Positions 4,354-43,173 of a DNA stretch of 64,000 bases are shown piece after piece. The DNA is taken from positions 44,893 through 108,892 of the forward strand of contig DASTWY010000068.1 of NCBI GenBank assembly GCA_035765735.1, given 5' to 3'. The notes beneath the pieces are model-generated. The model was not told the DNA's origin. It saw only the letters and a program-made list of their open reading frames with translations, and did not search any database. The DNA comes from Baekduia sp. GTDB lineage: Bacteria; Actinomycetota; Thermoleophilia; Solirubrobacterales; Solirubrobacteraceae. Position 1 is the stretch's first letter. Each line of letters begins with the position of its first letter. The position numbers were made by a program, and so were the translations under genes.

Positions 4354-4420
4354 GCCGCGGTGGGCGGGCGGGCCGGTCGCCGGGAAGGTCCGGGGAAGGC
4401 CGGCGGCGCACGCTGGCGGC

Positions 4421-6670: not shown

Positions 6671-7243
6671 GTGGCGCGCAAGGGCGACACCATCAGGAAC
6701 ATCCGGTCGGGTGAGACGATCACCTTCGTCCGCACGACCGAGGACAGCGGTGGCGAGGCCGTGGAGATGCTGTTCACGGTCACGCCGGGCGGCGCGCCGG
6801 CCGCGGTCCACGTCCATCCGCGCCAGACCGAGCGCTTCGACGTCCACGAGGGCTGCTGCCGCGTCGCCGTCGAGGGCGAGGAGCGGTTCGTCGAGGCGGG
6901 CGACAGCTTCATGATCCCGGCCGGTGCGGCGCACGTGTGGTCGGCGGTGACCGATCTGCGGATGACGGTGACCCTGGAGCCCGCGCTCGACGGCGAGGCG
7001 TTCTTCGAGGACCTGTTCGCCCTCTGCAACGCCGGCCCGGTCAACGCGAAGGGGCTGCCGGGCCCGCTCAGCATGGCGGTGCTGGCCCACGACCACCGCG
7101 AGACCTGCATCCTGGCGTCGCCCCCGCCGTTCGTGCAGCGCGTCGTGTTCTCGGTTCTGGCGCGGATCGGGCGCGCGCTCGGGCACGGCGCCGCGAACCT
7201 GCCGGCGCCCGTCGCCGAGCTGGCGGCCGCCGAGGCGGCCTGA
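6671..7243 (+). CDS. Cupin domain protein
   Basis: GTG 6671 is preceded by AGGGAGGA. Cupin motifs are present (HVHPRQTERFDVHEGCCRVAVEGEE ... GDSFMIPAGAAHVW). The track ORF start at 6566 lies inside the MarR gene and is unlikely. Confidence 0.8.
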   Translation: MARKGDTIRNIRSGETITFVRTTEDSGGEAVEMLFTVTPGGAPAAVHVHPRQTERFDVHEGCCRVAVEGEERFVEAGDSFMIPAGAAHVWSAVTDLRMTVTLEPALDGEAFFEDLFALCNAGPVNAKGLPGPLSMAVLAHDHRETCILASPPPFVQRVVFSVLARIGRALGHGAANLPAPVAELAAAEAA

Positions 7244-7260
7244 GGCCGGCGCCGGCCCGG

Positions 7261-7301
7261 CGCGGGCGGGTTGACGGTCGTGACGACCGCCAACCCGCCC
7301 G
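7261..7301. terminator. Bidirectional GC-rich hairpin (19-nt arms, one A.C mismatch, 3-nt loop)
   Basis: GCGGGCGGGTTGACGGTCG-tga-CGACCGCCAACCCGCCCGC lies between the convergent cupin (+) and hydrolase (-) genes. Confidence 0.6.
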
Positions 7302-7310
7302 CGGACGCCG

Positions 7311-9287
7311 CTAGGGCGTCCAGTCCGAGCTGTGGCAGGGCTTGCCGTCGCAGACGTCGACGACCTGCCCGTCGAGCAGGAACCGCGCCTTCTGCACCCG
7401 GGCCGCGGGCGTCGCGCGCGGCGACTCGTGCGGGTCGGTGCCCTCGCGCTGCGGGATCTCGAGGACCGGCTCCGGCGGGTTGTGGCCCGCGCCCGAGTCC
7501 CAGTAGACCAGCGCCGAGCCGCTGTACGGGAACGACGGGATCCGCGCCAGCTCCGCCAGCGGCTGGGCGGCGAGGCTGCGGCCGGGGTCGAACGCCGGCT
7601 CGTAGACCTTCGCGCCGATGGTGCGGGCCATGACCTCGGCCGTCCAGTTGGACACCTGGGCGTCGCCGACGGCCGGCTGGAGCAGCACGGTGTGCTTGGG
7701 CGTGTCCGGCAGGTTCGCCGTCGTCATGTGGTTGGCGTAGCCGTCGCCCTCGCCGCGGTCCCACAGCAGCTGCACGATCGCCAGGGCCTCGAGCCGCTGG
7801 ATCTGGTGCGGGTAGGCGGGGTAGAGGACCTTCGCGTACAGGTCGAAGTCCGTCGAGCGCGGCAGCAGCGTGGCGTAGTCCATGCCGACGACGCCGAGCA
7901 CGGCGCGCGTGTAGTCGGGCGCCAGCGCCGTGAGCGCCGCGCCGTCGATCGCGCCCTGGCTGTTGCCGTCGTAGTACAGCGCCGACGGGTCGATGACCGG
8001 CAGCCCGGCGAGCTGGAACGCCGGGTCCTTCGCGAGCCCGTCGGGGTGGCGCATGAGCCGACCCAGGTAGAGCATGTTCAGGAAGCCCTGCTGCAGCCGG
8101 TCGGCCATCTTCGGAAAGCCGCTGAGGTCGCCGAGGATGCCGACCGCGGTCGGGATGTCCTCGTTGGACATGCCGGCCCACGGCGTGGCGCAGAACACGA
8201 AGTCGTGCTCCTGGGACATCGCCTCGACGTTGGCGGCGTTGATCTCCGTCGGCTTGCCGAGCAGGCCGTGCCCGTAGAGGGACAGGTGCGCCGGCGTCGC
8301 CGGCGTCGCCGCCCGCGGGATGTTGCACACGAACGGCGCCTGCTGCACATTGCCCGGCAGCTGCGTGGGCAGGGCGTCCTTGCTCCTGGAGCTGTAGTGG
8401 AACTGCGCGCCGGTCGGGCACCCGGTCTGGTCGAGATAGCAGGGCACCGTGATCGTGCCGGTGATCTGGCGCGCGATGTTCGCGTTCTCGGTCGGCGAGA
8501 GGTCGGTCACGCCGGTGATCGTGTAGGCCGGCGCCTTGCCCTGCGGGACGCCGTCGGCGAGGTTCGTGTCGCCGAGCTGGCCGAACGCGTCGTCGCGGAT
8601 GGCGAGCATCCGGCCGGCGAGGCTCTTCGTGCTGGCCACGGTGAACGTCCAGGCCAGGTAAAGCGACTTGGTGCGCTTGACCTTCGCCTTGCGCAGCGTC
8701 CTGAAGATCGCCGCGTGCTTGCCCAGGTGCGCGAACCGGCGCGGCGCGTGGCGGTGAATGCCGCGCAGCGCGACCACGTACGTGTGGCCGTCGGCGAGGT
8801 TCTTGGCCGGGTGGATGACGATCAGGCGCTGCGACGGCGACTGGGCGACGCTGACGTCCAGGTCGGCCCAGGCCGGCCACCGCTTGCCCGTCTTCGCGTC
8901 GGCCAGCACCAGCCGGCTGCGGCGCTTCATCGAGTCGCCGACGTGGCCGGCGTCGGGCAGGTGCGTGCGCGCGAAGGCCTTCTGCGTGCTGACGCCCGGG
9001 ATGCGCAGCAGGATCGGCTGGCCGGGCGAGAAGCCGTCGGCGCGGTTCTCGTCGGTGACGTCCATGTGGACGCCCTTGTCGTTGACCGGCACGACGGCCC
9101 GGGACAGGTGCACGCGGCGGCCGGTGGGGGTGTGGCGGTCCTTGACGGTCTGCGTGGCGTCGTTGGGGAACGGCAGCAGGCAGCCGCGCTGCGGCATGTC
9201 GGTGCACGACGGGGCGGCGGCGGCGCTCGCGGGAGCAGCGAGGGCGAGGCCCCCGGCCAGCAGCAGCGCCTGGCGGCGGTACTTCAT
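7311..9287 (-). CDS. Secreted alpha/beta-hydrolase-like protein
   Basis: A GGAGGAG RBS precedes the ATG. The signal peptide is MKYRRQALLLAGGLALAAPASAAAAP. A nucleophile-elbow-like GNSQG motif sits within YYDGNSQGAIDGAAL. The composition is non-junk. The family was not identified further. Confidence 0.75.
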   Translation of the reverse strand: MKYRRQALLLAGGLALAAPASAAAAPSCTDMPQRGCLLPFPNDATQTVKDRHTPTGRRVHLSRAVVPVNDKGVHMDVTDENRADGFSPGQPILLRIPGVSTQKAFARTHLPDAGHVGDSMKRRSRLVLADAKTGKRWPAWADLDVSVAQSPSQRLIVIHPAKNLADGHTYVVALRGIHRHAPRRFAHLGKHAAIFRTLRKAKVKRTKSLYLAWTFTVASTKSLAGRMLAIRDDAFGQLGDTNLADGVPQGKAPAYTITGVTDLSPTENANIARQITGTITVPCYLDQTGCPTGAQFHYSSRSKDALPTQLPGNVQQAPFVCNIPRAATPATPAHLSLYGHGLLGKPTEINAANVEAMSQEHDFVFCATPWAGMSNEDIPTAVGILGDLSGFPKMADRLQQGFLNMLYLGRLMRHPDGLAKDPAFQLAGLPVIDPSALYYDGNSQGAIDGAALTALAPDYTRAVLGVVGMDYATLLPRSTDFDLYAKVLYPAYPHQIQRLEALAIVQLLWDRGEGDGYANHMTTANLPDTPKHTVLLQPAVGDAQVSNWTAEVMARTIGAKVYEPAFDPGRSLAAQPLAELARIPSFPYSGSALVYWDSGAGHNPPEPVLEIPQREGTDPHESPRATPAARVQKARFLLDGQVVDVCDGKPCHSSDWTP

Positions 9288-25903: not shown

Positions 25904-26983
25904 TCACGATGCCAGCGCCGCCCGGACCTGGCGGGCGATCTCGAGGTCCTCGCGGGCGACCACGACGTGCGTGCGGACCGTCGCGGCGCCCTCCGCGGTG
26001 ATCTCCGCGTCACCGCTCACCTGCGCGTTGCGCGCGTCGTCGATCCCGACCCCGAGGAACGCCAGCCCGGCCGCCGTGAGCGCGCGCAGCTCCGCCGAGC
26101 GCTCGCCGGCGCGGCCGGTGAACACGAGGTCGTCGAGGCCGCCGAGCGACGCCGCCATCGCGGCGATGCCGGCCCGCAGGCGGTGGACGTAGACGTCGCG
26201 GGCCAGCTGCGCCGGTCCGTCGCCGTCACCTGCCCGCTCCAGCACCGCGCGCAGGTCGGCGGTCCCGGCGAGCCCGAGGAGCCCCGACTCGTGCTCGAGC
26301 GCGTCGGCCAGCTCGCCCGTGGCCATGCCCTCGTGCTCGAGCAGCCACAGCACCAGGCCGGGGTCCACGTTGCCCGAGCGCGTCGCCATCACCAGCCCCT
26401 CGAGCGGGGTGAAGCCCATCGTCGTGTCGACCGAGCGGCCGTCGCGGATGGCGCACAGCGACGCACCCGCCCCGAGGTGGCAGCTGACGACCCGCTCGCC
26501 GGGGACGCGGCGCGCCACCCACGCGTGCGACAGGCCGTGGAAGCCGAAGCGCCGCAGGTTCCATCGCTCCCGCCAGGCCGCCGGCAGCGCGTAGGTCGCC
26601 GCCGCGTCGGGGAGCGTCGCGTGGAACGCGGTGTCGAAGCACGCGACCGCCGGCACGCCGGGCAGCAGGCGGCCGACCGCGTCGACGCCGGCCAGCGACT
26701 TGCCCTGGTGCAGCGGCGCGAGGTCGGCCAGCTCGCGCAGCGCGGCCTCGACGCGGGCGTCGAGCACCACCGCGTCGTGGAAGTGGTCGCCGCCGTGCAC
26801 GACGCGGTGGCCGACGGCGTCGGGCGCGTCCATCCCGGCGTCGCGCAGCGCCGCCTCGAGCTCGCCCGCGTCGACCCGCGCCCGCGGCGCGGCCAGCTCG
26901 CGCTCGGCGACGGTCGCGTCGTCGGCGTCCAGCAGCGAGAGCTTGAGGCTGCTCGAGCCGGCGTTGACGACGAGGACCCGCAC
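25904..26983 (-). CDS. ackA: Acetate kinase
   Basis: Motifs present: VLVVNAGSSSLK, HRVVHGG, FDTAFH, RFGFHGLSH, HLGAGAS, and TRSGNVDPG. It is compact (359 aa). It starts 3 nt after the xfp stop. Confidence 0.9.
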   Translation of the reverse strand: MRVLVVNAGSSSLKLSLLDADDATVAERELAAPRARVDAGELEAALRDAGMDAPDAVGHRVVHGGDHFHDAVVLDARVEAALRELADLAPLHQGKSLAGVDAVGRLLPGVPAVACFDTAFHATLPDAAATYALPAAWRERWNLRRFGFHGLSHAWVARRVPGERVVSCHLGAGASLCAIRDGRSVDTTMGFTPLEGLVMATRSGNVDPGLVLWLLEHEGMATGELADALEHESGLLGLAGTADLRAVLERAGDGDGPAQLARDVYVHRLRAGIAAMAASLGGLDDLVFTGRAGERSAELRALTAAGLAFLGVGIDDARNAQVSGDAEITAEGAATVRTHVVVAREDLEIARQVRAALAS

Positions 26984-26986
26984 CGC

Positions 26987-29377
26987 TCAGGCCGCCGAGC
27001 CCGCGGCGGGCGGCCAGGTCCAGTCCCGCACCTCGGGAGCGTCGTCGCCGGTCTCTCGCGTGTGCGCGCGCAGGCGCAGCCGGGTGTCCATCATCTCCTG
27101 GCGCAGGCCGGCGGCGCGCTCGCCGAGCGCCGGAACGCGGTCGACGACGTCGATGACCAGGTGGTAGCGGTCGAGGTCGTTCAACATCACCATGTCGAAC
27201 GGCGTCGTCGTCGTGCCCTCCTCCTTGTAGCCGCGCACGTGGATCTGGTCGTGGTTGGTGCGGCGGTAGGTCAGCCGGTGGATCAGCCACGGATAGCCGT
27301 GGTAGGCGAAGATCACCGGCCGGCTGGTCGTGAAGAGCGCGTCGAACTCGCGGTCGGAGAGCCCGTGCGGGTGCTCGCTGTCGGGCTGCAGGCGCATGAG
27401 GTCGACGACGTTGACGACGCGCACCTTCAGCTCGGGCACCCGCTCGCGCAGGATCGCCGCCGCCGCGACCACCTCGAGCGTCGGGATGTCGCCGGCGCAC
27501 GCGAGCACGACGTCGGGCTCGGCGCCGTCGTCGGTGCTCGCCCACGGCCACAGGCCGATGCCGCGCGTGCAGTGGGCGATCGCCTCGTCCATGGTCAGGA
27601 AGTCCAGCGACGGCTGCTTGCCGGCGACGATGACGTTGACGTAGTGCCGCGAGCGCAGGCAGTGGTCGGCGACCGACAGCAGGCAGTTGGCGTCGGGCGG
27701 CAGGTAGACGCGGATGATCTCGGCCTTCTTGTTGACCACGTGGTCGATGAACCCCGGGTCCTGGTGCGAGAACCCGTTGTGGTCCTGTCGCCACACGTGC
27801 GACGACAGCAGGTAGTTCAACGAGGCGATCGGCCGCCGCCACGGCAGCCCGCGTGTGACCTTCAGCCACTTCGCGTGCTGGTTGAACATCGAGTCGACGA
27901 TGTGGATGAACGCCTCGTAGCAGTTGAACAGCCCGTGGCGGCCGGTCAGCAGGTAGCCCTCGAGCCAGCCCTGGCACAGGTGCTCGCTGAGGACCTCCAT
28001 GACGCGGCCGTCGGGGGCGAGGTGGTCGTCGCCGGCGGCGACCTCGGCGTCCCAGGCGCGGTCGGTGGCCTCGAAGACGGCGTCGAGCCGGTTCGAGCGC
28101 GTCTCGTCCGGGCCCATGATCCGGAAGCGGTCGCGGTTGGCCGCGACGACGTCTCGCAGCCAGGCACCCAGCACGCGCGTGGCCTCGCTGCTGCGCCGGC
28201 CCGGCGCGGGGACGTCGACGGCGTAGGCGCGGAAGTCGGGGAGCTCGAGGTCGCGCAGCAGCAGGCCGCCGTTGGCGTGGGGGTTGGCGCCCATGCGCCG
28301 GGGGCCCTCCGGCGCCAGCGCCGTGATCTCGGACCGCACGGCCCCGTCGTCGTCGAACAGCTCGTGCGGCCGGTAGGAGCGCAGCCACGCCTCGAGCTGG
28401 GCGAGGTGCTCGGGCCGCTCGCGCAGGTTGGCCAGCGGCACCTGGTGGGAGCGGAAGGTGCCCTCGGCGGGCAGCCCGTCGACCTCCTTGGGGCCGGTCC
28501 AGCCCTTCGGCGTGCGCAGGACGATCATCGGCCAGCGGGGGCGCGTGCGGTCGTGCTCCTCCCGGGCCCGGCGCTGGATCGCCGCGATCTCGTCGAGCAC
28601 GTCGTCGAGGGCGTCGGCCAGCGCGCGATGCACCGCGGCCGGCTCGTCGCCGGTGACGAACCGCGGCGCGTAGCCGTAGCCCTCCAGCAGCGCCCGCAGC
28701 TCGTCCTCCGGGATCCGCGCGAGCACCGTCGGGTTGGCGATCTTGTAGCCGTTGAGGTGCAGGACCGGCAGCACCGCGCCGTCGGCCGCCGGGTTGAGGA
28801 ACTTGTTGGAGTGCCAGCTCGCCGCCAGCGGCCCCGTCTCGGCCTCGCCGTCGCCCACGACGCAGCAGACGAGCAGGTCGGGGTTGTCGAACGCGGCGCC
28901 GAAGGCGTGGACGAGCGCATAGCCGAGCTCGCCGCCCTCGTGGATCGAGCCCGGCGTCTCCGGCGCCACGTGGCTGGGGATGCCGCCGGGGAACGAGAAC
29001 TGGCGGAACAGGCGCCGCAGGCCCTCCTCGTCGCGCCGGATGTGCGGGTAGATCTCGGTGTACGTGCCCTCGAGGTAGGTGCTGGCGACCAGGGCGGGGC
29101 CGCCGTGCCCGGGCCCGGTGACGAACATCGCGTCGAGGTCGCGTGCGCGGATGACGCGGTTGAGGTGCGCGTAGAGCAGGTTGAGGCCGGGCGTCGTGCC
29201 CCAGTGGCCGAGCAGGCGCGGCTTGACATGCTCGAGGCGCAGCGGCTCGCGCAGCAGCGGGTTGTCCAGCAGGTAGATCTGGCCGATGGAGAGGTAGTTG
29301 GCCGCGCGCCACCAGGCGTCGAGCCGGGCGAGCTCCTCCTCGGTCGCCGGGGCGGGGGCGGCGGGCATGACGTCCAT
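26987..29377 (-). CDS. xfp: Xylulose-5-P/fructose-6-P phosphoketolase
   Basis: The sequence [24 protein letters not shown]...[17 protein letters not shown]...EGGELGY...GDGEAETGP is a hallmark phosphoketolase sequence. The start is at MDVMPAAP (or 29368). Confidence 0.92.
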
Positions 29378-29465
29378 CCTGCGGCCCGGATACCCCGCGC
29401 GCATCCGGGGGAACCCGTGGGCGGGTGCGGCCGCCCGGAGCGTCGGAAGGCTGGACACGTGTCGT

Positions 29466-29490
29466 CTGGACCCCGATCCGCGGGGTCCAG
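29466..29490. promoter_or_regulatory. Perfect 10-bp inverted repeat CTGGACCCCG-atccg-CGGGGTCCAG in the xfp/mntH divergent intergenic region
   Basis: Read directly. It lies 89 nt upstream of the xfp start and 133 nt upstream of the mntH start. Its function (operator or RNA hairpin) is unknown. Confidence 0.35.
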
Positions 29491-29622
29491 GCGACCCGCG
29501 TCCGGCGTCACGCCGGGATGACGGTCACCGGCCGGTCGACTCCAGGAAGGGTCGTCACGCCGAACTGCAGGCGCGCGAGCTCCAGGGCGGTCCCTCGCGC
29601 GCCCGTAAGGTCCACGGCTGCC

Positions 29623-30945: not shown

Positions 30946-31031
30946 GCGACCGGGGCGAGGGCACCACATGGGTGGGCGTGGAGCGCTGCGGCATTGACGA
31001 TGCGATAGCCGATGCTGTTTGCTGTGCGGAA

Positions 31032-32171
31032 GTGCGCAATGACGGTGATCATGGTCCGGAGCGGCTCGCGCTCGACGAGGCTCACATCGAGCAGCTGCAC
31101 CGCGGCCGCGTTGCCGACGCCGTTGTCGAGGTGCTCTCCGAGCGCGGCTATCCCGCGGTGACCGTGGCGGACATCGCCGCGCGCGCGACGATGTCGAGCC
31201 GGACCTTCTACCGCCTGTACGACAACAAGGCCGCCGCGTTCGCCGAGGTCCACCACCGGTTGCGGAAGCGCGCGCACCGTCGCATGCGGGCGGCGATGGC
31301 CTGCCACGAAGAGCCCCGCGATCAGGTCTGCGCCGCCCTGCAAGCCGTGCTCGCGTGCGTCGACGAGCACCCGGCGTGGGGGCGGGCGTTCGTGGCCGAC
31401 GGACCGGCCTCCGACGGGTCGGCGGAGCCGCTGTACCTCGCCACGATCCAGGGCTGGCTCGACGAGGCCGCCGACCTGCTGCCCGAGCCCCGTGACATGA
31501 CCCGCGCCGAGCAGGGCGCCGCGGTCTGCGGCATCCTCCGCGCGCGGCTGGCGACGGGCGGGCGACCCGCGTCCGACCTGTTGCCGGCGCTCAGCCGCCT
31601 GGTCGTCGGCGAGCGACTCGACGCGCTTCCGGCGACGGCGGACCGCGCCGCCCCGCCCGCGCCCGAGCTGACGTGGGATGCGCTCGTGCAGGCGCTGCTC
31701 GACCACGACGCCGCGAAGCTCGCCGCGCTCCAGCAGGAGGCCGAGGCCGCGCTGGACGGCCGGCGGCGCGGCGATGCCGCGAGAACCGCACCGCGGGATG
31801 AGGCCGAGCTGGCCGGCCTCGCGCACGCCGCCGCCGTCGGGCGCGTCGGCGGCGTGGCCGGCGTCCTGGCCCTGGCGGGCCACGGCACGGGCGACGGCCT
31901 ACCGTCGCGGCAGGCGCTGCGCTGCCTGCGCTACGTCGCCGCCCATCCCGGCACGAGCGGGCGCGGCGTCCTCCACGGGCTCGGGTTCCGCAACGAGTCG
32001 CAGGTCAGCCGGCTGCTGAGCGGGCTGGCCGGGCGCGGCCTCGTCAACGGCAGCCACGCGCGCGGCGGCCCGCGGGCATGGACGGCGACCGCTGCCGGGG
32101 AGCAGCTGCTGCGCTCGCTGGCGCTCCCGGGCGCGACGGAGGACCCGGCGCCCGAGCTCGACCCCGCGTGA
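31032..32171 (+). CDS. TetR-family N-terminal HTH regulator with extended C-terminus containing a second wHTH-like segment
   Basis: GTG 31032 (alternatives 30972 or 30978). The TetR HTH is VVEVLSERGYPAVTVADIAARATMSSRTFYRLYDNKAAAF. The C-terminal RCLRYVAAHPGTSGRGVLHGLGFRNESQVSRLLSGLAGRGLVNG looks like a MarR/IclR-type wHTH. Confidence 0.7.
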   Translation: MRNDGDHGPERLALDEAHIEQLHRGRVADAVVEVLSERGYPAVTVADIAARATMSSRTFYRLYDNKAAAFAEVHHRLRKRAHRRMRAAMACHEEPRDQVCAALQAVLACVDEHPAWGRAFVADGPASDGSAEPLYLATIQGWLDEAADLLPEPRDMTRAEQGAAVCGILRARLATGGRPASDLLPALSRLVVGERLDALPATADRAAPPAPELTWDALVQALLDHDAAKLAALQQEAEAALDGRRRGDAARTAPRDEAELAGLAHAAAVGRVGGVAGVLALAGHGTGDGLPSRQALRCLRYVAAHPGTSGRGVLHGLGFRNESQVSRLLSGLAGRGLVNGSHARGGPRAWTATAAGEQLLRSLALPGATEDPAPELDPA

Positions 32172-34309: not shown

Positions 34310-34340
34310 GTCGCCCGTCGGCTCACCTTCGACCAGAGCC

Positions 34341-34364
34341 CGAGGGTCGCCGCGCCGACCCTCG
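34341..34364 (+). terminator. GC hairpin after HAD gene (9-bp stem CGAGGGTCG/CGACCCTCG, 6-nt loop)
   Basis: Read directly, 32 nt downstream of the stop. There is no U-tract. Confidence 0.45.
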
Positions 34365-34402
34365 TGAGCTGCTCAGCGCTCAAGCGAACTTGCGCTTCGG
34401 GC

Positions 34403-34432
34403 TTGCTTTTGTGAACCGTGTGTGTTTATGGT
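34403..34432 (+). promoter_or_regulatory. Candidate sigma-70-type promoter for the secreted-protein module
   Basis: TTGCTT (34403-08), an 18-nt spacer, then TATGGT (34427-32, TAnnnT). It sits in an unusually low-GC stretch about 100 nt upstream of the 34532 start. Pattern match only. Confidence 0.25.
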
Positions 34433-34531
34433 CTGGACGGCGGGCGATGCTGAGCGAACAGGACTTCGCGAAGCTCAACGCCGTGCGAGGCATATGGCCT
34501 CTAGAGTCACAGCTACTGGAAAGGTCGTGTG

Positions 34532-36805
34532 ATGGGTCGAGGAGCGAGGGCGGTTGCCGTGGCAGCCGCTGTCTCGAGTGCGCTGGGGGCCACAGCCGTG
34601 CCCGCAGGCGCGCTGGCCGCCACGTCGGACGGGCGGGTGTACGAGCAGGCCACTGCAGTGGACAAGAACGGAAGCGCCGGCTTCCGCCAGAACGGCGCCG
34701 TGGTGACCCCTGAGACCGGCACCGTCGGCTTTCCGCTGCTCGTGGCGCCGGACGGCAACCGGCTCCTCTACGCCTCCGAGGGCGCGTTCGCCGGTGGGAT
34801 CGACGGCATCGGCAACGTGTACCAGGCAGACCGCGGTGACGGGGGATGGGCGACCACGGCGATCACGCCGCCCTCGCCGATGACGCATCCGACCCTGCTG
34901 CAGCTCGGCCGTCCGGATCTGTTCGACGCGACGCCCGATCTGGGCACCACGATGTTCTGGATCCGAAACTCTCCCGTCGTTAATCCGAGGAGCGTCCTGG
35001 AACGCCGGCTCCCTGACGGGTCGCTCCAGGCGGCATCGCTGGGCTCGCTCGGCACCACCGGCACCGGTGACGCGCTCTACGGCGGCGCGTCGACCGACCT
35101 GCGGCATGTGGTCTTTGCCTCGCTGAGCGCGATCGAGCCCGGGGCGGAGCCGGCGGCGGCGCTGGTCCAGCACACCCTCTACGAGCGGGACCTCGAGACC
35201 GGCACGACGCAGATCGTCGGCGTGCTGCCGGACGGCTCAGTTCCGGCGGGCGGGGCTTTCCTCGGCAACGGTGGCTACCACGTCCCGACGTACGACAACG
35301 TCGAGTCGCGGCACGCGGTGTCGGCCGATGGCTCCAGGGTCATCTTCATGAGCCCGGAGTCGGGGGACTTGCACGAGCTCTACGTGCGGGTGGACGGCAG
35401 CCGGACGATCCAGGTGTCCGCGTCGCAACGGGCCGCCGCGGGCGACGGCCCAACGGTGGGCGCGTGGTTCCAGGACGCAACCGCTGACGGCTCGATCATC
35501 TACTTCACCTCTGATGCGCAGCTGACGGACGACGACGACGACGACGCGATCGACCTCTACCGCTTCGTCGTCAACGCGGCGGGGACGGGCGGCACGCTCA
35601 CGCGCATGTCGCCCGGCCTGGGCTCCGACGGCATGGTGGGGATGTCCGCCGACGGCCAGGTCGTCTACTTCGTCGCGCAGGGTGTGCTGGGAGGCTCGCC
35701 GGCGACCGCGGGGGCGCCGAACCTCTACGTCGACGACCACGGGACGCTCTCCTTCGTCGCGACCCTGAGCCCGTCCGACCACGTGCGCCTGGTCGACACG
35801 AAGCCCCGCTGGACCCCGACCAACGTGCCGGACATCGACTGGGCCCCGCAGGCCCGCGTGACACCGGACGGGCGGCACGTGCTGTTCCAGTCCTTCGCCG
35901 CGGTGACGGGCTTCGACGCCGGCGGCCACGCCGAGGTCTTCCGCTCCACGCTCGGAGGCGGCATCGACTGCCTCTCCTGCGGGCCGGCCCCGAGCGGGGA
36001 CGCACGGCTGACCGATCCGTACTACACGCCCTCGGTCCGGCTGCCGCACAACCTCAGCGACGACGGCGCCACCGCGTACTTCGAGACGCCGGACCCCCTC
36101 GTCGCGCAGGACGTCAACGGGCAGTTCGACGTCTATCGCTGGCATGGCGGCGCGGTGACGCTCATCTCCGGCGGCACCGGGCCCCGGGAGTCCGGGTTCA
36201 TCGACGCCAGCTCCGACCCCGTGGACCGCGACGTGTTCTTCCGCTCCTACGACCAGCTCGGCGCGAGCGACACCGACACGGCCGGCGACATCTACGACGC
36301 ACGGGTCGGCGGCGGCTTCCCGGTGCCGCCGCCCGGGACCGCGCCGTGTCGCGGTGACGGCTGCCGTGCGATCGTGCCGGCTCCGCCTCCCCCGGCCGGG
36401 GGGACGCTGACGTACTTCGGAGCCGGCAATGCCAAGGCCGCGCCGCACGACGCCGACTCGGAGGCGACGCTGTCGGTGGCGCCGATCAAGCGCTCCGCCG
36501 TCCGCCGCTGGGCCCGCACCGGGCGTCTGCGGCTCGAGGTCCGTGTGTCGGACGCGGGACGCCTCGCCGTCACCGCCAAGGCGCCGTTGCGCCGCTATCA
36601 CCGCGCGCGAGTCGTGGCGCATGCCGTGCGGCATCCGCACGGCGGCACGACCACCGTCACGCTGCGGCTGCGCCACCGGGCGCGCGTGGCGCTGCGGCGC
36701 GGCCATCGGCTGCGGACGACCGTGACCGTGCGGCACGCCGCGGTGAGCAAGCCGCTGGTGGCCACCGTCGTCCTCCCGTCCAGCAACCACAAGGAGCAGC
36801 GCTGA
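34532..36805 (+). CDS. Secreted PD40/TolB-like beta-propeller repeat protein with Arg/His-rich C-terminal domain
   Basis: A GGAAAGG RBS precedes the start, and the signal peptide ends ALA-AT. There are about 8 repeats of the type (A/P)DGxxxxF.S followed by D(L/V/I)Y(R/D). The sequence also has a DDDDDD run, a CRGDGC plus Pro-rich linker, and a basic beta-strand-patterned tail. Confidence 0.8.
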   Translation: MGRGARAVAVAAAVSSALGATAVPAGALAATSDGRVYEQATAVDKNGSAGFRQNGAVVTPETGTVGFPLLVAPDGNRLLYASEGAFAGGIDGIGNVYQADRGDGGWATTAITPPSPMTHPTLLQLGRPDLFDATPDLGTTMFWIRNSPVVNPRSVLERRLPDGSLQAASLGSLGTTGTGDALYGGASTDLRHVVFASLSAIEPGAEPAAALVQHTLYERDLETGTTQIVGVLPDGSVPAGGAFLGNGGYHVPTYDNVESRHAVSADGSRVIFMSPESGDLHELYVRVDGSRTIQVSASQRAAAGDGPTVGAWFQDATADGSIIYFTSDAQLTDDDDDDAIDLYRFVVNAAGTGGTLTRMSPGLGSDGMVGMSADGQVVYFVAQGVLGGSPATAGAPNLYVDDHGTLSFVATLSPSDHVRLVDTKPRWTPTNVPDIDWAPQARVTPDGRHVLFQSFAAVTGFDAGGHAEVFRSTLGGGIDCLSCGPAPSGDARLTDPYYTPSVRLPHNLSDDGATAYFETPDPLVAQDVNGQFDVYRWHGGAVTLISGGTGPRESGFIDASSDPVDRDVFFRSYDQLGASDTDTAGDIYDARVGGGFPVPPPGTAPCRGDGCRAIVPAPPPPAGGTLTYFGAGNAKAAPHDADSEATLSVAPIKRSAVRRWARTGRLRLEVRVSDAGRLAVTAKAPLRRYHRARVVAHAVRHPHGGTTTVTLRLRHRARVALRRGHRLRTTVTVRHAAVSKPLVATVVLPSSNHKEQR

Positions 36806-39753
36806 TGTCCGCGCGCCGGTTCGTCCTTCCCGCCCGCGGGCGGCTGCATCGTGGCCTCGCCATCCTGGCGATGGCGCTGGTGTCGGCGGTGGCGTGGAGC
36901 GCCACCGCCAGCGCCAAGGTTAGCCTGCAGACCTTCTCGGTCGAGCTGACCGGGCCCCAGGCGCAGGTGGCCGGTGGCCATCCGGATCTCACCACGACGT
37001 TCATGGTCACCAACGACCCCACGGCAGGGCCGTACGGGAACCCGTGGCCAGCCGAAGACGTCCGAGACGTGACGGTCGATCTGCCCGCAGGTTTCGTCGG
37101 CAGCGCCGTTGCGGCCCCTCAGTGCACGTATCCCGACCTGACGCATCTGCGCTGCAGCGCCGACAGCCAGGTCGGCATCGTCGGCATCATCTTCGACGCG
37201 GCCGGACACTCATCGCCGGTCGGTATCTACAACATGGTGCCGTCGGCGGGACACACGGCGGAGTTCGGGTTCAACGTCCAGGGCCAGGCGTCCAACGTCG
37301 GCGTCGTCAGCGTGCGTTCCGATGGCGACTACGGGCTGCGGGTGACCATGAAGGGGATCACCTCGCAGGTCATCCCGACCTACGGCGCGAAGGTGACCCT
37401 GTGGGGCGTGCCTGCCGACCCAGTGCACGACGCTGAGCGCTACGCCGGCTTCCCGCCGGCCCCGGGTGCGTCCAGCGGCGCTCCGCGCGTGGCGTACATC
37501 ACCAACCCATCCGTCTGCGGCACGCCGTTCCAGGCGTCGATCGTGGTCAACTCCTATCAGGACCCGACCCACGACACGCACCAGACGGCCGATATCCCGG
37601 CGATGAGCGGGTGCGGCGACCAGCAGTCGCACCCGAAGATGACCGTCCGCGCGGAGGCCACGACCTCGGCGACACCGTCCGGGATGCTGGTCGACCTCGA
37701 CGTCCCGCAGGCCGACAACCCCGGTGCGGTGGCGACGCCCCCGGTCAAGGACGTCAGCCTGACGTTCCCCTGGGGCGTGTCGATCTCGGCCGCCGCGGCT
37801 TCCGGCCTGCAGGGCTGCACCGATGATCAGGTCGGCATCGGCAGCGCCGGTGCGCCGGCGTGCCCGGACGCGTCGAAGATCGGCAGCGTGCAGATCGACA
37901 CGCCGCTGCTGCCGGAGGCGCTCAAGGGCGACGTCTACCTCGGCGCCCCGAAGTCCAACGACGCGCAGTCCGGGAACATGTTCCGGATCCTGCTGACCGC
38001 CGAGGGCTCCGGTGTGCGCCTCAAGCTCCCGGGCAGCATCACCCCGGACCCGGCGACCGGGCAGCTCACCGCCGCGTTCCGCGACGAGCCGCAGCTGCAG
38101 TTCAGCCACCTGGCGCTCCGCCTCGACGGCGGTCCGCATGCGGTGCTGACGCTCCCCGAGGCCTGTGGCACGGCGACCTCGTCGGCCACCGTCACCGACT
38201 GGGGCGGACGCAGCACCACGAGCACGAGCGCGTTCGACGTCACCAGCTGTCCGGGTGCCGGGACGTTCGGCCCGACCCTCGCGGCCGGATCGGTCAACCC
38301 GGCGGCCGGGGCGAGCTCGCCGTTCACGCTGACGTTCGGCCGTCCGGCTGGGCAGGTGTGGCTCGGCAAGCTCGTGGCCACGCTGCCGCCGGGCCTCATG
38401 GCCGAGGTGGCCGGGGTGCCGCTGTGCGCTGACGCGCAGGCCGCTGCGGGCACGTGCTCGGCCGACACCCGTGTCGGGCGCGTCGACGTCCTCGCGGGCG
38501 ACGGCAGCGACCCGCTCCCGCTCGCCGGCCAGGTGTACCTCACGGGCCCCTATCACGGAGCGCCGTTCGGGCTGTCGATCGTCATCCCGGCGATGGCCGG
38601 TCCCTACAACCTCGGCACGGTCGTCGTCCGCGCCGCGGTCTCGGTCGATCCGCACGACGCGCATCTGCGGGTCGTCAGCGACGACATCCCGACGATGCTC
38701 CAGGGCGTGCCGTTCCGGCTGCGCTCGGTCAGCGTCACGATCGACCGCGGCGGGTTCATGGTGAACCCGACCAGCTGCGATCCGATGCAGGTCCTTGCGA
38801 CCATCTCGAGCGTCGCGGGCACCGCGGTCGACACGGCCAACCGGTACCAGGTGGGCAGCTGCCAGGCGCTGCCGTTCGCACCGCGGATCCGGATGACCAC
38901 CGACGGCACGGTCGAGAAGAACGCCGACGCGTCGCTGCACGTCTCGATCGAGCAGTCGTCGCCGTCGGCCAACCTCCGCACCGTGCGGGTCACCCTGCCG
39001 GAGCACATGGGTCCGCGGCTGAGCACGCTGAACCAGGCGTGTGCCGAGAACGACTACGTCGCCGGCACGTGCGGGCCCGGGTCGGCGATCGGCCAGGCGT
39101 CGGTGTCCACACCGATCCTGCCGGTGCCGTTGACCGGCCCCGTCCACCTGGTGGCTCGCAAGGGCCAGCTGCCGCTGATGATGGTCGACCTGGCCGGCCA
39201 GGGGATCAACATCCAGCTCAAGGGCGATGTCTCGTTCGCGGGCTCGCGGCTGGTGGCCACGTTCGACGGGATCCCCGATGTGCCGATCTCGCGGTTCGAC
39301 ATGGACCTGCCCAAGGGGGCGGGCTCGGCCCTGACGTCCGACGCCCGTCTGTGCGATCAGCGGCTCGAGGCTCCGACCTCGGCCGTGGGCCAGAGCGGCG
39401 TCACCGACGACCAGGACGTGCGGGTCACCGCGACCGGCTGCAAGGTCCACATCGCCAGGGCGTCGCGCAAGGGCGCGGCGTCGCGCCTGACGCTGTCGGG
39501 CGTGGAGCACACGGCGCTCACCGTCCGCGGTGGCCGCCTGGTCCGGCCGGTGAAGCGCTCGGTTCGCCGCAGCCACATCGCGCACGTGACCGTGCGGCTG
39601 ACCGGCAAGGGCCGCCGGGTCTACGCGAAGCACCACGACAAGCTCCGCGTCAGGGTCCACGTCACGGCCGAGCTCGCCGACGGCAGCACGCAGAAGACGG
39701 CGCGCTGGGTGACGTTCCGCCCGGCCAAGCGCGGCCAGTTCCAGACGAGCTAG
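36805..39753 (+). CDS. Large secreted hypothetical protein with ~200-aa triple internal repeat and Arg/His-rich C-terminal domain
   Basis: The ATG overlaps the upstream TGA (TGATG). The signal peptide ends ATASA-KV. The composition is non-junk with many Cys pairs. Repeat anchors are G(D/Q/P)V(Y/H)L at nt 37927, 38527 and 39136. Confidence 0.8.
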   Translation: MSARRFVLPARGRLHRGLAILAMALVSAVAWSATASAKVSLQTFSVELTGPQAQVAGGHPDLTTTFMVTNDPTAGPYGNPWPAEDVRDVTVDLPAGFVGSAVAAPQCTYPDLTHLRCSADSQVGIVGIIFDAAGHSSPVGIYNMVPSAGHTAEFGFNVQGQASNVGVVSVRSDGDYGLRVTMKGITSQVIPTYGAKVTLWGVPADPVHDAERYAGFPPAPGASSGAPRVAYITNPSVCGTPFQASIVVNSYQDPTHDTHQTADIPAMSGCGDQQSHPKMTVRAEATTSATPSGMLVDLDVPQADNPGAVATPPVKDVSLTFPWGVSISAAAASGLQGCTDDQVGIGSAGAPACPDASKIGSVQIDTPLLPEALKGDVYLGAPKSNDAQSGNMFRILLTAEGSGVRLKLPGSITPDPATGQLTAAFRDEPQLQFSHLALRLDGGPHAVLTLPEACGTATSSATVTDWGGRSTTSTSAFDVTSCPGAGTFGPTLAAGSVNPAAGASSPFTLTFGRPAGQVWLGKLVATLPPGLMAEVAGVPLCADAQAAAGTCSADTRVGRVDVLAGDGSDPLPLAGQVYLTGPYHGAPFGLSIVIPAMAGPYNLGTVVVRAAVSVDPHDAHLRVVSDDIPTMLQGVPFRLRSVSVTIDRGGFMVNPTSCDPMQVLATISSVAGTAVDTANRYQVGSCQALPFAPRIRMTTDGTVEKNADASLHVSIEQSSPSANLRTVRVTLPEHMGPRLSTLNQACAENDYVAGTCGPGSAIGQASVSTPILPVPLTGPVHLVARKGQLPLMMVDLAGQGINIQLKGDVSFAGSRLVATFDGIPDVPISRFDMDLPKGAGSALTSDARLCDQRLEAPTSAVGQSGVTDDQDVRVTATGCKVHIARASRKGAASRLTLSGVEHTALTVRGGRLVRPVKRSVRRSHIAHVTVRLTGKGRRVYAKHHDKLRVRVHVTAELADGSTQKTARWVTFRPAKRGQFQTS

Positions 39754-39789
39754 CCGCCACCGGCGTCTTCGGGCGCCGGAGCAGTCCAT

Positions 39790-39825
39790 CCGGAGGCCCG
39801 CGTTCGCCCGAACGCGGGCCTCCGG
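39790..39825 (+). terminator. Strong GC hairpin (16-bp perfect stem, 4-nt loop)
   Basis: CCGGAGGCCCGCGTTC-gccc-GAACGCGGGCCTCCGG lies 37 nt after the 982-aa gene stop. Confidence 0.65.
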
Positions 39826-39931
39826 CGCGAGCGGGCAGAGGCCCGGTCGCTCCGTCGTGCGCGGGCGCGCCTCCGTCGTTCTCAGGCCGGGGCAGGCCGC
39901 GGCTCACCTCAACGCAAGGAGTCAGATCAGC

Positions 39932-40522
39932 ATGCAGAAGATCGCGCGAACGGCTGCAGTCGTGTTGCTGCTGTCGCTCGTCGGCGTCGCCTCGGCGTCG
40001 GCCACCACGGTCAGCCCGAGCGGCTCGGGCACCGCGTACACGATGACCAACTCCGGCAACGTCGTCATCAAGGACCCGGCTGGCACGGCCATGTCGTGTA
40101 CGTCCTCGTCGCTGACCGGGACGACCACGTCGAGCGGCGCGCTCACGTTCTCCTCCGAGAGCTTCGGCGGCACCTGCACCGGCGCGGGCTTCAACTGGAC
40201 GATCACCACCAGCGGCACGTGGACCGGCACGCTGACCTATGACGCCAGCGGAAACCACAAGTTCCAGATCACCGTGCCGGCAGGCGGGATGCACTTCTCC
40301 AACGGGTTCGGCTGCACCTATGACGTGAGCGGGACGACCAGCGCGTGGAACGGCACGAGCGGGGGCAAGTACGTGAACACCGGCAACCTGACGCTCCTCA
40401 ACGCCGGCGGGCTGTCGGTCAGCAACGTGTCGTTCGGGTGCTTCGGCACCGTGGCCACCGGGCCGGGCGAGACGCTGTCTGCGACCTACACGGTGTCGCC
40501 CGTCGCGACCGTCAGCCCGTAG
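39932..40522 (+). CDS. Small secreted Ser/Thr/Gly-rich four-Cys protein (paralog A)
   Basis: An AAGGAG RBS is present. The signal peptide is MQKIARTAAVVLLLSLVGVASASA-TT. It is 196 aa and about 75% identical by eye to the product of 41317..41916. Confidence 0.8.
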   Translation: MQKIARTAAVVLLLSLVGVASASATTVSPSGSGTAYTMTNSGNVVIKDPAGTAMSCTSSSLTGTTTSSGALTFSSESFGGTCTGAGFNWTITTSGTWTGTLTYDASGNHKFQITVPAGGMHFSNGFGCTYDVSGTTSAWNGTSGGKYVNTGNLTLLNAGGLSVSNVSFGCFGTVATGPGETLSATYTVSPVATVSP

Positions 40523-40610
40523 GGGCAAGAGGGAAGGCTGCGCGCGTCGGGTGAGGGTCTGCCCGGCGCCACGCGGGAAGCCTCGCCGAGAACCAGCCGC
40601 TGTCGGACCT

Positions 40611-40642
40611 GGAGGCCCGCGCCGACGAGGGCGCGGGCCTCC
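40611..40642 (+). terminator. GC hairpin (13-bp perfect stem, 6-nt loop) sharing the GGAGGCCCGCG core with 39790..39825
   Basis: GGAGGCCCGCGCC-gacgag-GGCGCGGGCCTCC lies 89 nt after the paralog A stop. Confidence 0.6.
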
Positions 40643-41264
40643 GGCGCGTTCGGAGTCCTAGGCTGACCGGCCTCCATGTTCTCCTGACCGTTCTCTGTCG
40701 GTTGAGCGGGGTGTTCTCGTTTCGGCTCAGGCTCCGAAGTCGAGTCACGTCGCAGCACGTGGTTGACTGCAGCTTGTCGGTGACGACGGGCGCTGCTCAG
40801 GCGGGGATGCGCGCGTTGACCTCGTTCTGATCCTTGGCGAACCGTGCTCTGGCTCTATGGTTGGCCTGAGGACCTGACGCATCGATTCTCGGACAGGGAG
40901 CGACGGGAGACCAACCACCACGGCTGCGACTATCGCCGGCTCGCAGCGGCGCCGCGGCTCCAGAAAGCACGGACAGTACGCCGGCCTCGGCCATCGTGGC
41001 GCCCCGACCCGCGCGGCGCCGCCAGATGAGCCCCGCTGAGCTGCGCCTGTCGGCACAACTCGGAGGCCGCTCCATCTGAGCCGGAGGTCGCAGCGCCCTG
41101 ACGGTAACCGCGCGGTGCACCTCGTCCGGCCTCCTTGCGGCGGCGATCGACGACCCTCGGCCGGCCAGCTGCACGGGAGTCTGCGCTGGTGCATGTGGAG
41201 ATCCCGCGGAGCTGCCGGTCAGGCACGTCGCGCAGGGTGGGCTGAGCCGGCGCTTAAACGACAT

Positions 41265-41290
41265 GGCCGGGGAGCATGCGCTCCCCGGCC
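41265..41290 (-). terminator. GC hairpin (11-bp stem GGCCGGGGAGC/GCTCCCCGGCC, 4-nt loop) downstream of paralog B
   Basis: Read directly. It lies 27 nt beyond the stop of the minus-strand gene 41317..41916. Confidence 0.55.
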
Positions 41291-41316
41291 ACGAACCTGC
41301 GTCGTGCTGCTGGGTG

Positions 41317-41916
41317 CTACGAGCTGACCGTGGCGGTCGGGTTCAGCGTGTAGGTCCCGCTGAACGTCGCGCCGGGGCCGCTGGCGACGGCGCCGAAGCA
41401 GCCGAACGCCACGTTGCTGACCGACAGGCCGCTCGCGTTGGTCAGCGTCGCCGTGCCGCTGTTGACGTACTTGCCACCGCTCGTGCCGTTCCAGGCGCTC
41501 GTCGTGCCCTGGACGTCGAAGGTGCAGCCGAAGCCGTTCGACAGGTGCGCCCCCGCGGTCGGGACGGTGATCTGGAACTTGTGGTTCCCGCCGGCGTCGT
41601 ACGTCACCGAGCCGGTCCAGGTGCCGCTCGTCGACACCGTCCAGTTGAAGCCGGCGCCCGAGCAGGTGCCGCCGAAGCTCTCCGAGGAGAACGTGAACGC
41701 GCCGCTCGACGAGGTCGTGCCGGTGAGGGTCGAGCTCGTGCAGCTGATGGACGTGCCGGCGGAGTCCTTGAAGACCGTGCTGCCACTATTGGTGGCGGTG
41801 TACACGTTCCCCGAGCCGCTCGGGCTGACGGTGGTGGCCGACGCCGAGGCGACGCCGACGAGCGAGATGGCGAGCATGGCCACGGCGAAGAGCGCGCGGC
41901 GGATCTTGTGAGACAT
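41317..41916 (-). CDS. Small secreted Ser/Thr/Gly-rich four-Cys protein (paralog B)
   Basis: The signal peptide is MSHKIRRALFAVAMLAISLVGVASASA-TT. It is 199 aa and collinear with paralog A, including all four Cys and the NHKFQITVP motif. Confidence 0.8.
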   Translation of the reverse strand: MSHKIRRALFAVAMLAISLVGVASASATTVSPSGSGNVYTATNSGSTVFKDSAGTSISCTSSTLTGTTSSSGAFTFSSESFGGTCSGAGFNWTVSTSGTWTGSVTYDAGGNHKFQITVPTAGAHLSNGFGCTFDVQGTTSAWNGTSGGKYVNSGTATLTNASGLSVSNVAFGCFGAVASGPGATFSGTYTLNPTATVSS

Positions 41917-42169
41917 CTGGTGTCCTTTGATCGATGTGAGTGATGCGCCCGCACCGAGTGCCGGCGCCTCCTACGGTCCTGCCTGGCCTGCCAGGGGCAG
42001 GCAGTGGTGGTGTGCCTCGATGCCCTCCCTTCGTCCGGCCGTCGCGCGCCGGCTGCCTCCGGCTGCGCTCACGGATCGATCGGAACGCCGCTGAGATAAC
42101 CACACCGTAGGGTCCGAAGTCAAGCATGTTTTTGAGACCGGGCATTTGCATGTGTCCAGACATGCGAAC

Positions 42170-42195
42170 GGCGTGCCCAGCTGGCTGGGCACGCC
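42170..42195 (-). terminator. GC hairpin (11-bp stem GGCGTGCCCAG/CTGGGCACGCC) downstream of DUF892-like gene
   Basis: Read directly, 37 nt beyond the stop of 42232..42975. Confidence 0.5.
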
Positions 42196-42231
42196 GTGCG
42201 ATTGCTGCCGTGCAGCGTCTCTGATGAAGGT

Positions 42232-42975
42232 CTACGACTTCTTCGCGCGAGCCCCGGTGGTGGTTCGCGCGCGCGAGCCGGTCGAGCGGCTCGTCGTCCG
42301 CGAGCCCGAGGCCGACGAGCGCGTGCGCGTCGCTGCGGAGGCCCGGCGGGCCTTGCCCGTGGTGGCGGTGGTGCGCCGGCGCGGCGTCGCCGGCTTCTCC
42401 GCCGGCGGCTTGCGCTCCTTCGCCGGGATCTCCTCCTTGACGACCTGCTTGGTCAGCTGCGGGATCAGCCGCTGCAGGAACGTCGCCATCCGCTCCTCCT
42501 GACGGCGGAACTCCTTGGCGAGCTTCGCCGTGTCGACGTCGCCGAGGGCGTCGGCCAGCTGCTCGATGGCCAAGTAGTTGCCGATCTCCTCGAACTCGTT
42601 GAACAGCTCCGTCTTGGCGTTCTTCAGCAGCTTCTCCGCCTCGCCGGTGCCCCGGAGCATGTGCACCGGGCCCTTCGCCATCGCGGCGCCCTTCTTAGCG
42701 GCACCCATCGCCTTGCCCGCGACGTCGGCGGCGACGTCGGGCCCGGGGAGGTTCAGCGCCTCGGCCTTGCCGCCCAGCGCCTTGATGCGCCGCTCGAGGC
42801 CCTTGGCCTGCTGCTGGGTCTCCTTGAGGTGCTCGCGCAGCCGCTTCTTGTAGGCGTCGCGCGTCGTCATCGAGATGTGCGCCTTGAGCGCCGTCTCGAG
42901 CTCCTTCTCCTTGCCGTAGGCCTCGTTGAGGTACTGGATCAGCTTCGCTTCGCGGGCGGTCGGCTCGGCGGCCAT
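42232..42975 (-). CDS. DUF892/YciE-YciF-like ferritin-fold stress protein with basic Ser/Thr/Arg-rich tail
   Basis: The sequence MAAEPTAREAKLIQYLNEAYGKEKELETALKAHI...EIGNYLAIEQLADALGD is typical of the family. The last ~55 aa (PRRRTTATTGKARRASAATRTRSS...) are low-complexity and basic. The track ORF extension to 43137 runs through the tRNA and is rejected. Confidence 0.8.
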   Translation of the reverse strand: MAAEPTAREAKLIQYLNEAYGKEKELETALKAHISMTTRDAYKKRLREHLKETQQQAKGLERRIKALGGKAEALNLPGPDVAADVAGKAMGAAKKGAAMAKGPVHMLRGTGEAEKLLKNAKTELFNEFEEIGNYLAIEQLADALGDVDTAKLAKEFRRQEERMATFLQRLIPQLTKQVVKEEIPAKERKPPAEKPATPRRRTTATTGKARRASAATRTRSSASGSRTTSRSTGSRARTTTGARAKKS

Positions 42976-43057
42976 GGGGCAGGGCTCCTCCTCGGTGGGA
43001 TCCGTACGCCGACGACTGTTCCCCACGGGCAGGTCGTCTACACTGCCGGAGAACCCT

Positions 43058-43131
43058 GGTGGGCGTAGCTCAGCTGGTAGAGCTCCTGGTTGTGGTCCAG
43101 GCGGTCGGGGGTTCGAGTCCCCTCGCTCACC
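43058..43131 (+). tRNA. tRNA-His: tRNA-His (anticodon GTG)
   Basis: Folded manually. G-1 (43058) pairs with discriminator C (43131). The acceptor is GTGGGCG/CGCTCAC with one G.U pair. The D arm is GCTC-AGCTGGTA-GAGC. The anticodon arm is CCTGG-TTGTGGT-CCAGG. The T arm is GGGGG-TTCGAGT-CCCCT. CCA is not encoded. Confidence 0.93.
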
Positions 43132-43173
43132 CTCCATCTGCCCCGACGACGGCGCGTCGGCGGGTGCTCCGCT

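Follow-up and report, generated by a model that had tools for sequence, protein, structure and literature searches.

What kind of system, if any, is formed by four neighboring genes whose products all appear to be secreted and of which three encode proteins of no recognizable family? The genes in question, here called g1 to g4, lie between positions 34403 and 41916 of a 64,000-nucleotide stretch of Baekduia sp. DNA (contig DASTWY010000068.1), the whole of which is referred to below as the window. A first-pass annotation of the letters alone had proposed that the four genes make up a self-contained, undescribed module, with a composition suggesting an extracellular structural, adhesive or surface-layer assembly. 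We find that this observation is confirmed in part and its interpretation supported in part. The genes belong to a cassette that is real, strongly conserved and previously undescribed; none of its three protein families has a Pfam or NCBIfam model of its own, and an assembly of the kind first proposed is a plausible product. A search of the literature on Conexibacter and the Solirubrobacterales in connection with S-layers or PD40 found no description of this cassette.

True genes in the window, which has a GC content of 75%, were picked out by frame-specific GC at third codon positions (GC3). The two large genes lie on the plus strand, g1 at 34532–36805 (757 aa from the ATG, or 758 aa from a GTG at 34529; an alternative gene caller gives 748 aa) and g2 at 36805–39753 (982 aa). 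The g1 stop and the g2 start overlap in the sequence TGATG, with an AAGGAG just upstream, and the two genes are a translationally coupled pair, as had been read from the sequence initially. g1 matches the Pfam family PD40 (PF07676) with 45.6 bits against a cut-off of 20.9, in keeping with its earlier description as a 757-aa PD40 β-propeller. A g1-family profile (44 homologues, in 22 of which PD40 is detected) also matches the TolB propeller 7mx5_A with an E-value of 7e-6, and PDB sequence and profile searches with g1 returned TolB and other propellers only. Judged by these matches, g1 is an exported TolB-like PD40 β-propeller protein. It differs from TolB proper in having no TolB_N domain (Pfam), a much larger propeller region, extra cysteine pairs and a basic tail, and no tol or pal genes occur among its neighbors; the cassette host, moreover, belongs to a Gram-positive lineage. 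The two conserved cysteine pairs of g1 are C480/C483 and C606/C611. Many g1 homologues (those of loci L016, L019, L026, L031, L037 and others) start, behind the signal peptide, with the conserved motif CPN..R....LPDCRAYE.VSP..K.G, which in the window g1 is reduced to SDGRVYEQATAVDKNG and has no Cys pair. An FN3-like “TTYHYRVVA” domain seems to lie ahead of some g1 open reading frames (ORFs).

The AlphaFold2 model of g2, based on 97 aligned sequences, is all-β with a predicted local distance difference test score (pLDDT) of 92.4 and a predicted template modeling score (pTM) of 0.81; so high a pTM over 982 residues implies that, in the model, the domains hold fixed relative positions. Four modules of ∼200 aa (residues 38–270, 271–483, 484–686 and 687–879) are followed by a basic tail domain. 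The modules are mutually homologous (HHalign probability 97–99.8%) and bounded by cysteines, and conservation within g2 is highest in the central ones. What had been described as a 982-aa Cys-containing protein holds 16 cysteines, all of them invariant and arranged as two pairs per module, with 10–32 residues between the members of a pair, a spacing that fits disulfides. Some g2 homologues are longer, with more modules (∼1,450 aa), and others are extended at the N-terminus by an NHL/SGL propeller plus FN3 or by a DUF11 domain. Since an NHL/SGL propeller is fused to the g2 repeats in some homologues, propeller and stalk are linked.

No match to g2 was found in Pfam, NCBIfam, PADLOC, PHROGs or the PDB sequences, and g2 itself has no DUF11 (PF01345)/TIGR01451 repeats. 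A Foldseek search of the g2 model against PDB and BFVD revealed no specific structural relative (template modeling (TM) score ≤0.16); the matches were to generic Ig/FN3/MG arrays (complement/A2M MG domains, integrin α legs and mastigoneme), to transglutaminase barrels and to DUF11/FN3 phage proteins. On these TM scores we rejected g2 as an A2M/complement, integrin, transglutaminase or phage-tail protein. A resemblance to integrin α, with its propeller on thigh and calf legs, exists insofar as Foldseek aligns g2 to the integrin legs and propeller–g2 fusions occur, but the alignments (TM ≤0.16) are those of generic β-sandwich arrays only, and propeller and stalk are here separate polypeptides. 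Unlike A2M and complement proteins, g2 has no A2M-family Pfam match, reaches a TM score of at most 0.12 and has cysteines that are all invariant and paired; in contrast to head-on-stalk/A2M-type proteins, no thioester or metal-site motif was found in it.

The pair is widespread within one lineage. g2 has 1,734 homologues at E≤1e-3, none with a functional name, and those bearing a name are all called “hypothetical” and all come from Conexibacter, Baekduia or Solirubrobacteraceae; the suggestion of an undescribed system thus holds for a multi-copy family and not for a one-off. A scan of one genome per species confirmed at least 588 g2 relatives. We kept 79 of these loci for comparison, all of which belong to the Thermoleophilia and nearly all to the Solirubrobacterales, and individual genomes contain from 3 to at least 6 cassette loci. 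In 79 of 81 loci the gene immediately upstream of g2, and on its strand, is a g1 homologue. The g1 stop codon overlaps the g2 start codon in 59 of 85 pairs (ATGA in 36, TGATG in 19), and a further 21 pairs are separated by 30 nt or less. The g1 and g2 distance matrices agree (Mantel r = 0.69, p = 0.001), the nearest neighbor being the same in 33 of 72 cases; duplication and divergence therefore affect the cassette as a whole.

The recurrent unit consists of one or more small proteins, g1 and g2, often joined by a regulator that combines TetR_N with a winged helix-turn-helix (wHTH) domain. Conserved synteny, which had been proposed as a check, is accordingly seen for the large pair and, significantly if partially, for the small family, while the exact four-gene combination of the window is not a recurrent one. 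The window copy resembles the other cassettes in its coupled g1–g2 pair, the polybasic C-termini of both large proteins and the Cys-bounded ∼200-aa modules of g2. At one orthologous locus (L087:11241–14326), g2 is apparently broken into several short ORFs with an IS481-type transposase nearby, and this looks like a decaying cassette copy.

The most distinctive feature shared by g1 and g2 lies at their C-termini. The bodies of the two proteins are acidic (pI 4.5 for g1 and 4.9 for g2), whereas each ends in a β-domain of ∼100 aa with a pI of 12 (36452–36802 in g1 and 39442–39750 in g2, both on the plus strand). The g1 tail is homologous to the g2 tail (HHalign 98.5%, E = 3.5e-15). In ∼1.5 Mb of fetched loci this basic domain was confined to cassette proteins, where it forms the very end of g1-like and g2-like proteins and of a third class of large proteins. 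The folded domain is present in both proteins of 11 cassettes, in neither of 57, in g1 only in 9 and in g2 only in 3 (Fisher p = 4e-6, which overstates the significance, given that the sequences are related and so not independent). Where the folded domain is lacking, the proteins retain K/R-rich ends, some of them as a basic helix-Cys-Cys motif, and the type of tail matches between the g1 and g2 of one cassette. The median net charge of the last 40 aa is +14.5 for g1 and +10 for g2, compared to 0 for control ORFs of the same loci and −2 for the small proteins. Polybasic C-termini, universal in both large families, thus count among their defining traits, and this tail or domain is a likely retention device. 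The third class, large exported NHL/FN3 proteins of 850–1,390 aa (for example L002:1244–4057, L083:5225–7783, L082:3977–7024 and L062:370–5489), carries the same basic domain, and in some genomes its gene closely precedes the pair; no such protein is encoded in the window.

In each of the four window proteins an N-terminal signal-like segment is the sole hydrophobic stretch, in agreement with the signal peptides noted previously. None of the four contains a lipobox, a functional LPXTG signal or CXXCH. The sequences LPSSN (g1 residue 748) and LPLAG (g2 residue 571) have no hydrophobic segment behind them, which sets g1 and g2 apart from sortase-dependent pili and LPXTG proteins, and no sortase was found among the scanned window neighbors. 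The first-pass view that the proteins lack an anchor thus stands for lipobox and LPXTG signals, but it had overlooked the homologous basic domain on g1 and g2. No SLH domain was matched by Pfam in the four proteins, and no PADLOC (anti-phage defense) or PHROGs (phage) model matched any of them; Pfam (E≤0.1) and NCBIfam gave nothing for g2, g3 and g4 and only PD40 for g1. Across Pfam, NCBIfam, PDB, PADLOC and PHROGs, no confident match to a characterized family was obtained beyond PD40, so that three of the four proteins are indeed without one. Neither of the two outcomes named at first as refuting the proposal, confident family matches for all members and a lack of conserved synteny, was thus observed. 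Two other candidate features were discarded. Haem-binding CXXCH is absent in the window and not conserved. Tat export of g2 had been considered for the sequence SARRFVL, 13 residues before the hydrophobic core; since it is badly placed and not conserved, Sec export is more likely.

In 50 of 81 loci, no more than 8 kb from g2, there is a gene for a regulator of ∼340 aa that joins TetR_N to a MarR/IclR-like winged helix at its C-terminus. It usually lies next to the pair, either following g2 or preceding g1, and in tandem arrays it lies between units. The window encodes a distantly related protein of this architecture at 31020–32171 on the plus strand (start codon uncertain; TetR_N E = 2e-10, MarR_2 0.008) that is 29–33% identical to cassette-linked regulators. 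From its sequence it is a possible regulator of the module, a link that we regard as tentative because three unrelated genes intervene. Fusion regulators range from ∼330 to 490 aa (examples are L016:10831–11820, L025:3881–5026 and L082:13257–19226), and L082 has four TetR_N genes in a row.

The small genes are organized differently from the pair. g3 (39932–40522, plus strand, 196 aa) has its own ribosome-binding site (RBS), AAGGAG, and g4 (41317–41916, minus strand, 199 aa) is convergent with it. Their proteins are 76% identical, and their DNA forms a 549-nt inverted repeat (81%) with copies 794 nt apart. The two ∼197-aa paralogs initially reported to follow the pair are thus present, but the fourth gene runs in the opposite direction across a 794-nt spacer. 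GC-rich, terminator-like hairpins follow each unit: after g2 at 39790–39825 on the plus strand (a perfect 17-bp GC-rich stem; −40.2 kcal/mol, z = −4.6), after g3 at 40611–40644 on the plus strand (GC-rich; −42.5 kcal/mol, z = −3.9) and just downstream of g4 at 41262–41293 on the minus strand (GC-rich; −43.8 kcal/mol for the folded stretch, z = −3.3). For none of the three did any of 200 shuffles fold equally well. With a strong hairpin after each of g2, g3 and g4, the region is divided into three transcription units; the two convergent small paralogs are each transcribed on their own, and there is no four-gene operon. The genes on either side have housekeeping or metabolic roles unrelated to the module (Nramp, thioesterase, HAD, DUF892, glycosyltransferase, aldehyde dehydrogenase and tRNA-His). 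The module is therefore self-contained, and as a self-contained set of exported proteins the first proposal holds.

The family to which g3 and g4 belong is rare. A word-indexed search of 5.8 billion proteins recovered g3 and g4 alone, and 26 full-length relatives, of ∼190–220 aa and with four conserved cysteines, came from exhaustive HMMER against 1.84 billion representative proteins. A widened profile collected 76 proteins, mostly of ∼186 aa, and wherever their source is named it is Solirubrobacteraceae or Baekduia; no Pfam or PDB match was found for the family. With an iterated profile, small-family genes were located beside the g1–g2 pair in 20 of 84 loci, usually just upstream of g1 on the same strand and often in two or three tandem copies. 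Conversely, all three loci reached through the small protein alone contain a PD40 gene followed by a ∼1,100-aa gene without a Pfam match, and in two of the three these genes overlap by 4 nt. Foldseek with the low-confidence g3 model returned nothing better than E = 0.07; the top matches were meander β-barrels (lipocalin, LolA and PsbO), a hint only, given the quality of the model. The idea that the small proteins are single g2 modules was ruled out (HHalign probability ≤0.2%). A signal-peptide heuristic for other small secreted families near the pair yielded mostly regulators as false positives and was not used.

In L012, L020, L028, L046, L051, L059, L075 and L076, many of the small genes are K/E/N/I-rich, and the clusters that hold them have a median GC3 of 0.44–0.73, much below that of other genes in those genomes; GC3 of the window g3 and g4 is normal at ∼0.96–0.98. 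L082 encodes two ∼208-aa signal-peptide proteins (1988–2614 and 7105–7734) beside g2-like and FN3 genes and outside the small-family profile, which may represent a second, analogous small family.

How might these proteins work together? We tentatively favor, at somewhat less than an even chance, a salt-bridge-anchored head-and-stalk surface binding complex that is non-catalytic and located outside the cytoplasmic membrane. The g1 propeller “head” and the rigid four-module g2 “stalk” would be made in fixed proportion through translational coupling, exported by Sec and then oxidized outside the membrane. We infer a 1:1 complex because translational coupling is established for stoichiometric partners, and anchoring through the tails because basic C-terminal modules serve as non-covalent wall anchors in Gram-positive bacteria. 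The polybasic domain or tail would thus hold both proteins at the anionic cell envelope by salt bridges, and together they would form a ligand- or surface-binding complex for adhesion or capture. g3 and g4 would be fast-evolving accessory partners which, being tail-less, would be either held by the complex or released. Cassette copies would diverge in specificity, each switched by its adjacent TetR_N+wHTH regulator.

Several points weigh against such a complex. The folded tail domain occurs in just ∼25–40% of cassettes, the others having disordered K/R tails, and basic tails could bind extracellular DNA (eDNA), exopolysaccharide or soil minerals instead of the wall. Genes of the g3/g4 type are missing from about three-quarters of the loci, and confidence in the g3 model is low (pLDDT 60.7). 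The window regulator lies 2.4 kb off, beyond three unrelated genes before g1, and TetR-type regulators accompany catabolic or efflux genes more often than adhesins. PD40, NHL and SGL propellers, finally, can be catalytic in other families.

The tail charges apply equally well to released scaffold or matrix proteins whose polybasic ends, by binding polyanions (eDNA, acidic exopolysaccharide, humic matter or clay), would build or attach a biofilm or a matrix of soil particles. The proteins have no covalent or membrane anchor and their source organisms are soil bacteria, both of which suit such a role. The present data, however, fit wall anchoring just as well, and many individually regulated, diverged copies are a poor fit to a bulk matrix; we consider this explanation unlikely. 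The frequency of the linked regulator raises another alternative, an inducible extracellular catabolic unit in which the propeller is an unrecognized hydrolase or lyase, comparable to SGL/NHL lactonases or to proteins resembling streptogramin lyase, g2 binds the polymer and the TetR-type regulator senses the product. One regulator per copy recalls polysaccharide utilization loci, NHL/SGL propellers occur on some homologues and one source labels a homologue “streptogramin lyase.” Yet searches of g1 and g2 with Pfam, NCBIfam and profiles detected no catalytic family or motif, the nearest solved relative of g1 is the non-catalytic TolB, and no recurrent transporter or hydrolase lies beside the cassettes, which makes a catabolic unit improbable.

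Two further alternatives concern the small proteins. g3 and g4 could be unrelated neighbors by chance, with g1–g2 alone as the functional unit; they are transcribed separately, g4 lies on the opposite strand, and tblastn found no close g3/g4 homologue in 81 loci. Profile searches, by contrast, place this very rare family beside the pair in nearly a quarter of the loci, and the pair was directly downstream in every one of the loci chosen via the small protein only, so that a chance association is decidedly improbable. A fiber or pilus-like polymer, with the small four-Cys proteins as subunits and g1/g2 as base, tip or assembly factors, would accommodate the tandem small genes (three copies in L084 and L075, two in the window), the all-β character of the small proteins (low-confidence model) and the gene order small–g1–g2, but it has the poorest chance of all, as no gene for a sortase, usher, ATPase or secretin is present, ∼75% of cassettes lack the small family and no donor-strand or pilin-like fold was detected in the low-confidence g3 model.

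For the head-and-stalk complex that we favor, the nearest concept among known systems is that of the Csc/WxL cell-surface clusters, and by analogy rather than homology or membership. These clusters occur in Lactobacillales, Listeria and some Bacillus (Siezen et al. 2006, PMC1534035; Hassan et al. 2023, PMC10599100). They are lineage-restricted, are present in several copies per genome and encode only Sec-exported proteins of unknown function, among them a small and a large protein with a common C-terminal, non-covalent wall-binding domain and Ig-like partners, for which surface complexes have been proposed (PMC1534035, PMC10599100). Similarly, the cassette described here is lineage-restricted and multicopy, encodes Sec-exported proteins only, and has a shared C-terminal element and Ig-like partner domains. 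Unlike the Csc/WxL clusters, it has no WxL, DUF916 or DUF3324 match (Pfam), no sequence relationship to them and no membrane-anchored or LPXTG (CscD-type) member; its shared C-terminal element is polybasic, and its core is a PD40 propeller together with a four-module β-sandwich protein.

The tails also invite comparison with GW modules and other basic C-terminal non-covalent anchors of Gram-positive surface proteins (e.g., Listeria InlB), for which electrostatic binding to anionic wall polymers is proposed. The tails of g1 and g2 are likewise C-terminal, strongly basic and devoid of a hydrophobic segment, and by this analogy they may bind the wall, although they have no GW, SLH, LysM or CWB match in Pfam and are unrelated in fold and sequence as far as compared.

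Solirubrobacterales are widespread soil Actinomycetota, and we know of almost no experimental cell biology on them. The cassette covers a large block of their unannotated exported proteins, given the number of g2 homologues and species-representative matches and the multicopy state, and its definition adds three protein families that are new, a candidate for a new type of C-terminal anchoring domain and, in the TetR_N+wHTH regulator with its cassette, a candidate regulon unit. If the anchoring idea is correct, the basic tail could be used as a display tag in high-GC Gram-positive bacteria. A broader and more doubtful proposition is that the Thermoleophilia, chiefly the Solirubrobacterales, possess a repertoire of TetR-switched “head-and-stalk” surface receptors, assembled from three protein families lacking described relatives and held at the wall by a new polybasic C-terminal sorting or anchoring domain. 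Were this so, the cassettes would be new Gram-positive surface machinery in the role of Sus-like or Csc/WxL systems, for instance in capturing substrates or in variable adhesion in soil.

The remaining features of the locus concern its non-coding segments and surroundings. A low-GC leader (34375–34531, plus strand), the presumed promoter region of the g1–g2 operon, follows a hairpin (34331–34374) located after the HAD gene. Its low GC, pointed out at the outset, is evident from values of 0.62 over 34310–34528 and 0.56 in the final 150 nt, compared to 0.75 for the window. The promoter-like element also claimed for it was not recovered: a consensus scan of the leader found no sigma-70 consensus promoter, TTGCTT...TATGGT being a loose match only. 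An RBS-like GGAAAGG precedes the g1 start. The upstream, promoter-side region of g4 (41917–42231, minus strand) has a GC content of 0.65, and no element was identified in it.

The hairpin regions after g2 and g3 (39792–39834 and 40611–40653) have 43 nt in common at 77% identity, with the core GGAGGCCCGCG...CGCGGGCCTCC, and this shared sequence may be a repeated terminator or an element of the repetitive extragenic palindromic (REP) type. The g3–g4 intergenic spacer (40523–41316) contains no Rfam family and no decayed copy of a small gene or tail, and shows no similarity to any fetched locus; the ∼620 nt between the g3 and g4 terminators (40645–41261) give no coding GC3 signal.

g2, g3 and g4 are 100% identical to the hypothetical proteins VFT50_18270, 18275 and 18280 of Baekduia sp., a metagenome-assembled genome of the order Solirubrobacterales. 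Downstream, tRNA-His (GTG; 43059–43132, plus strand) overlaps the 5′ end of the longest DUF892 ORF (42232–43137, minus strand), so the DUF892 gene must start further in. Farther away, adjacent phosphoketolase (XFP) and acetate kinase genes on the minus strand (25904–29524) likely form a phosphoketolase-pathway operon, and at 730–4569 two overlapping ORFs of ∼1,200 aa on opposite strands both pass the GC3 filter.

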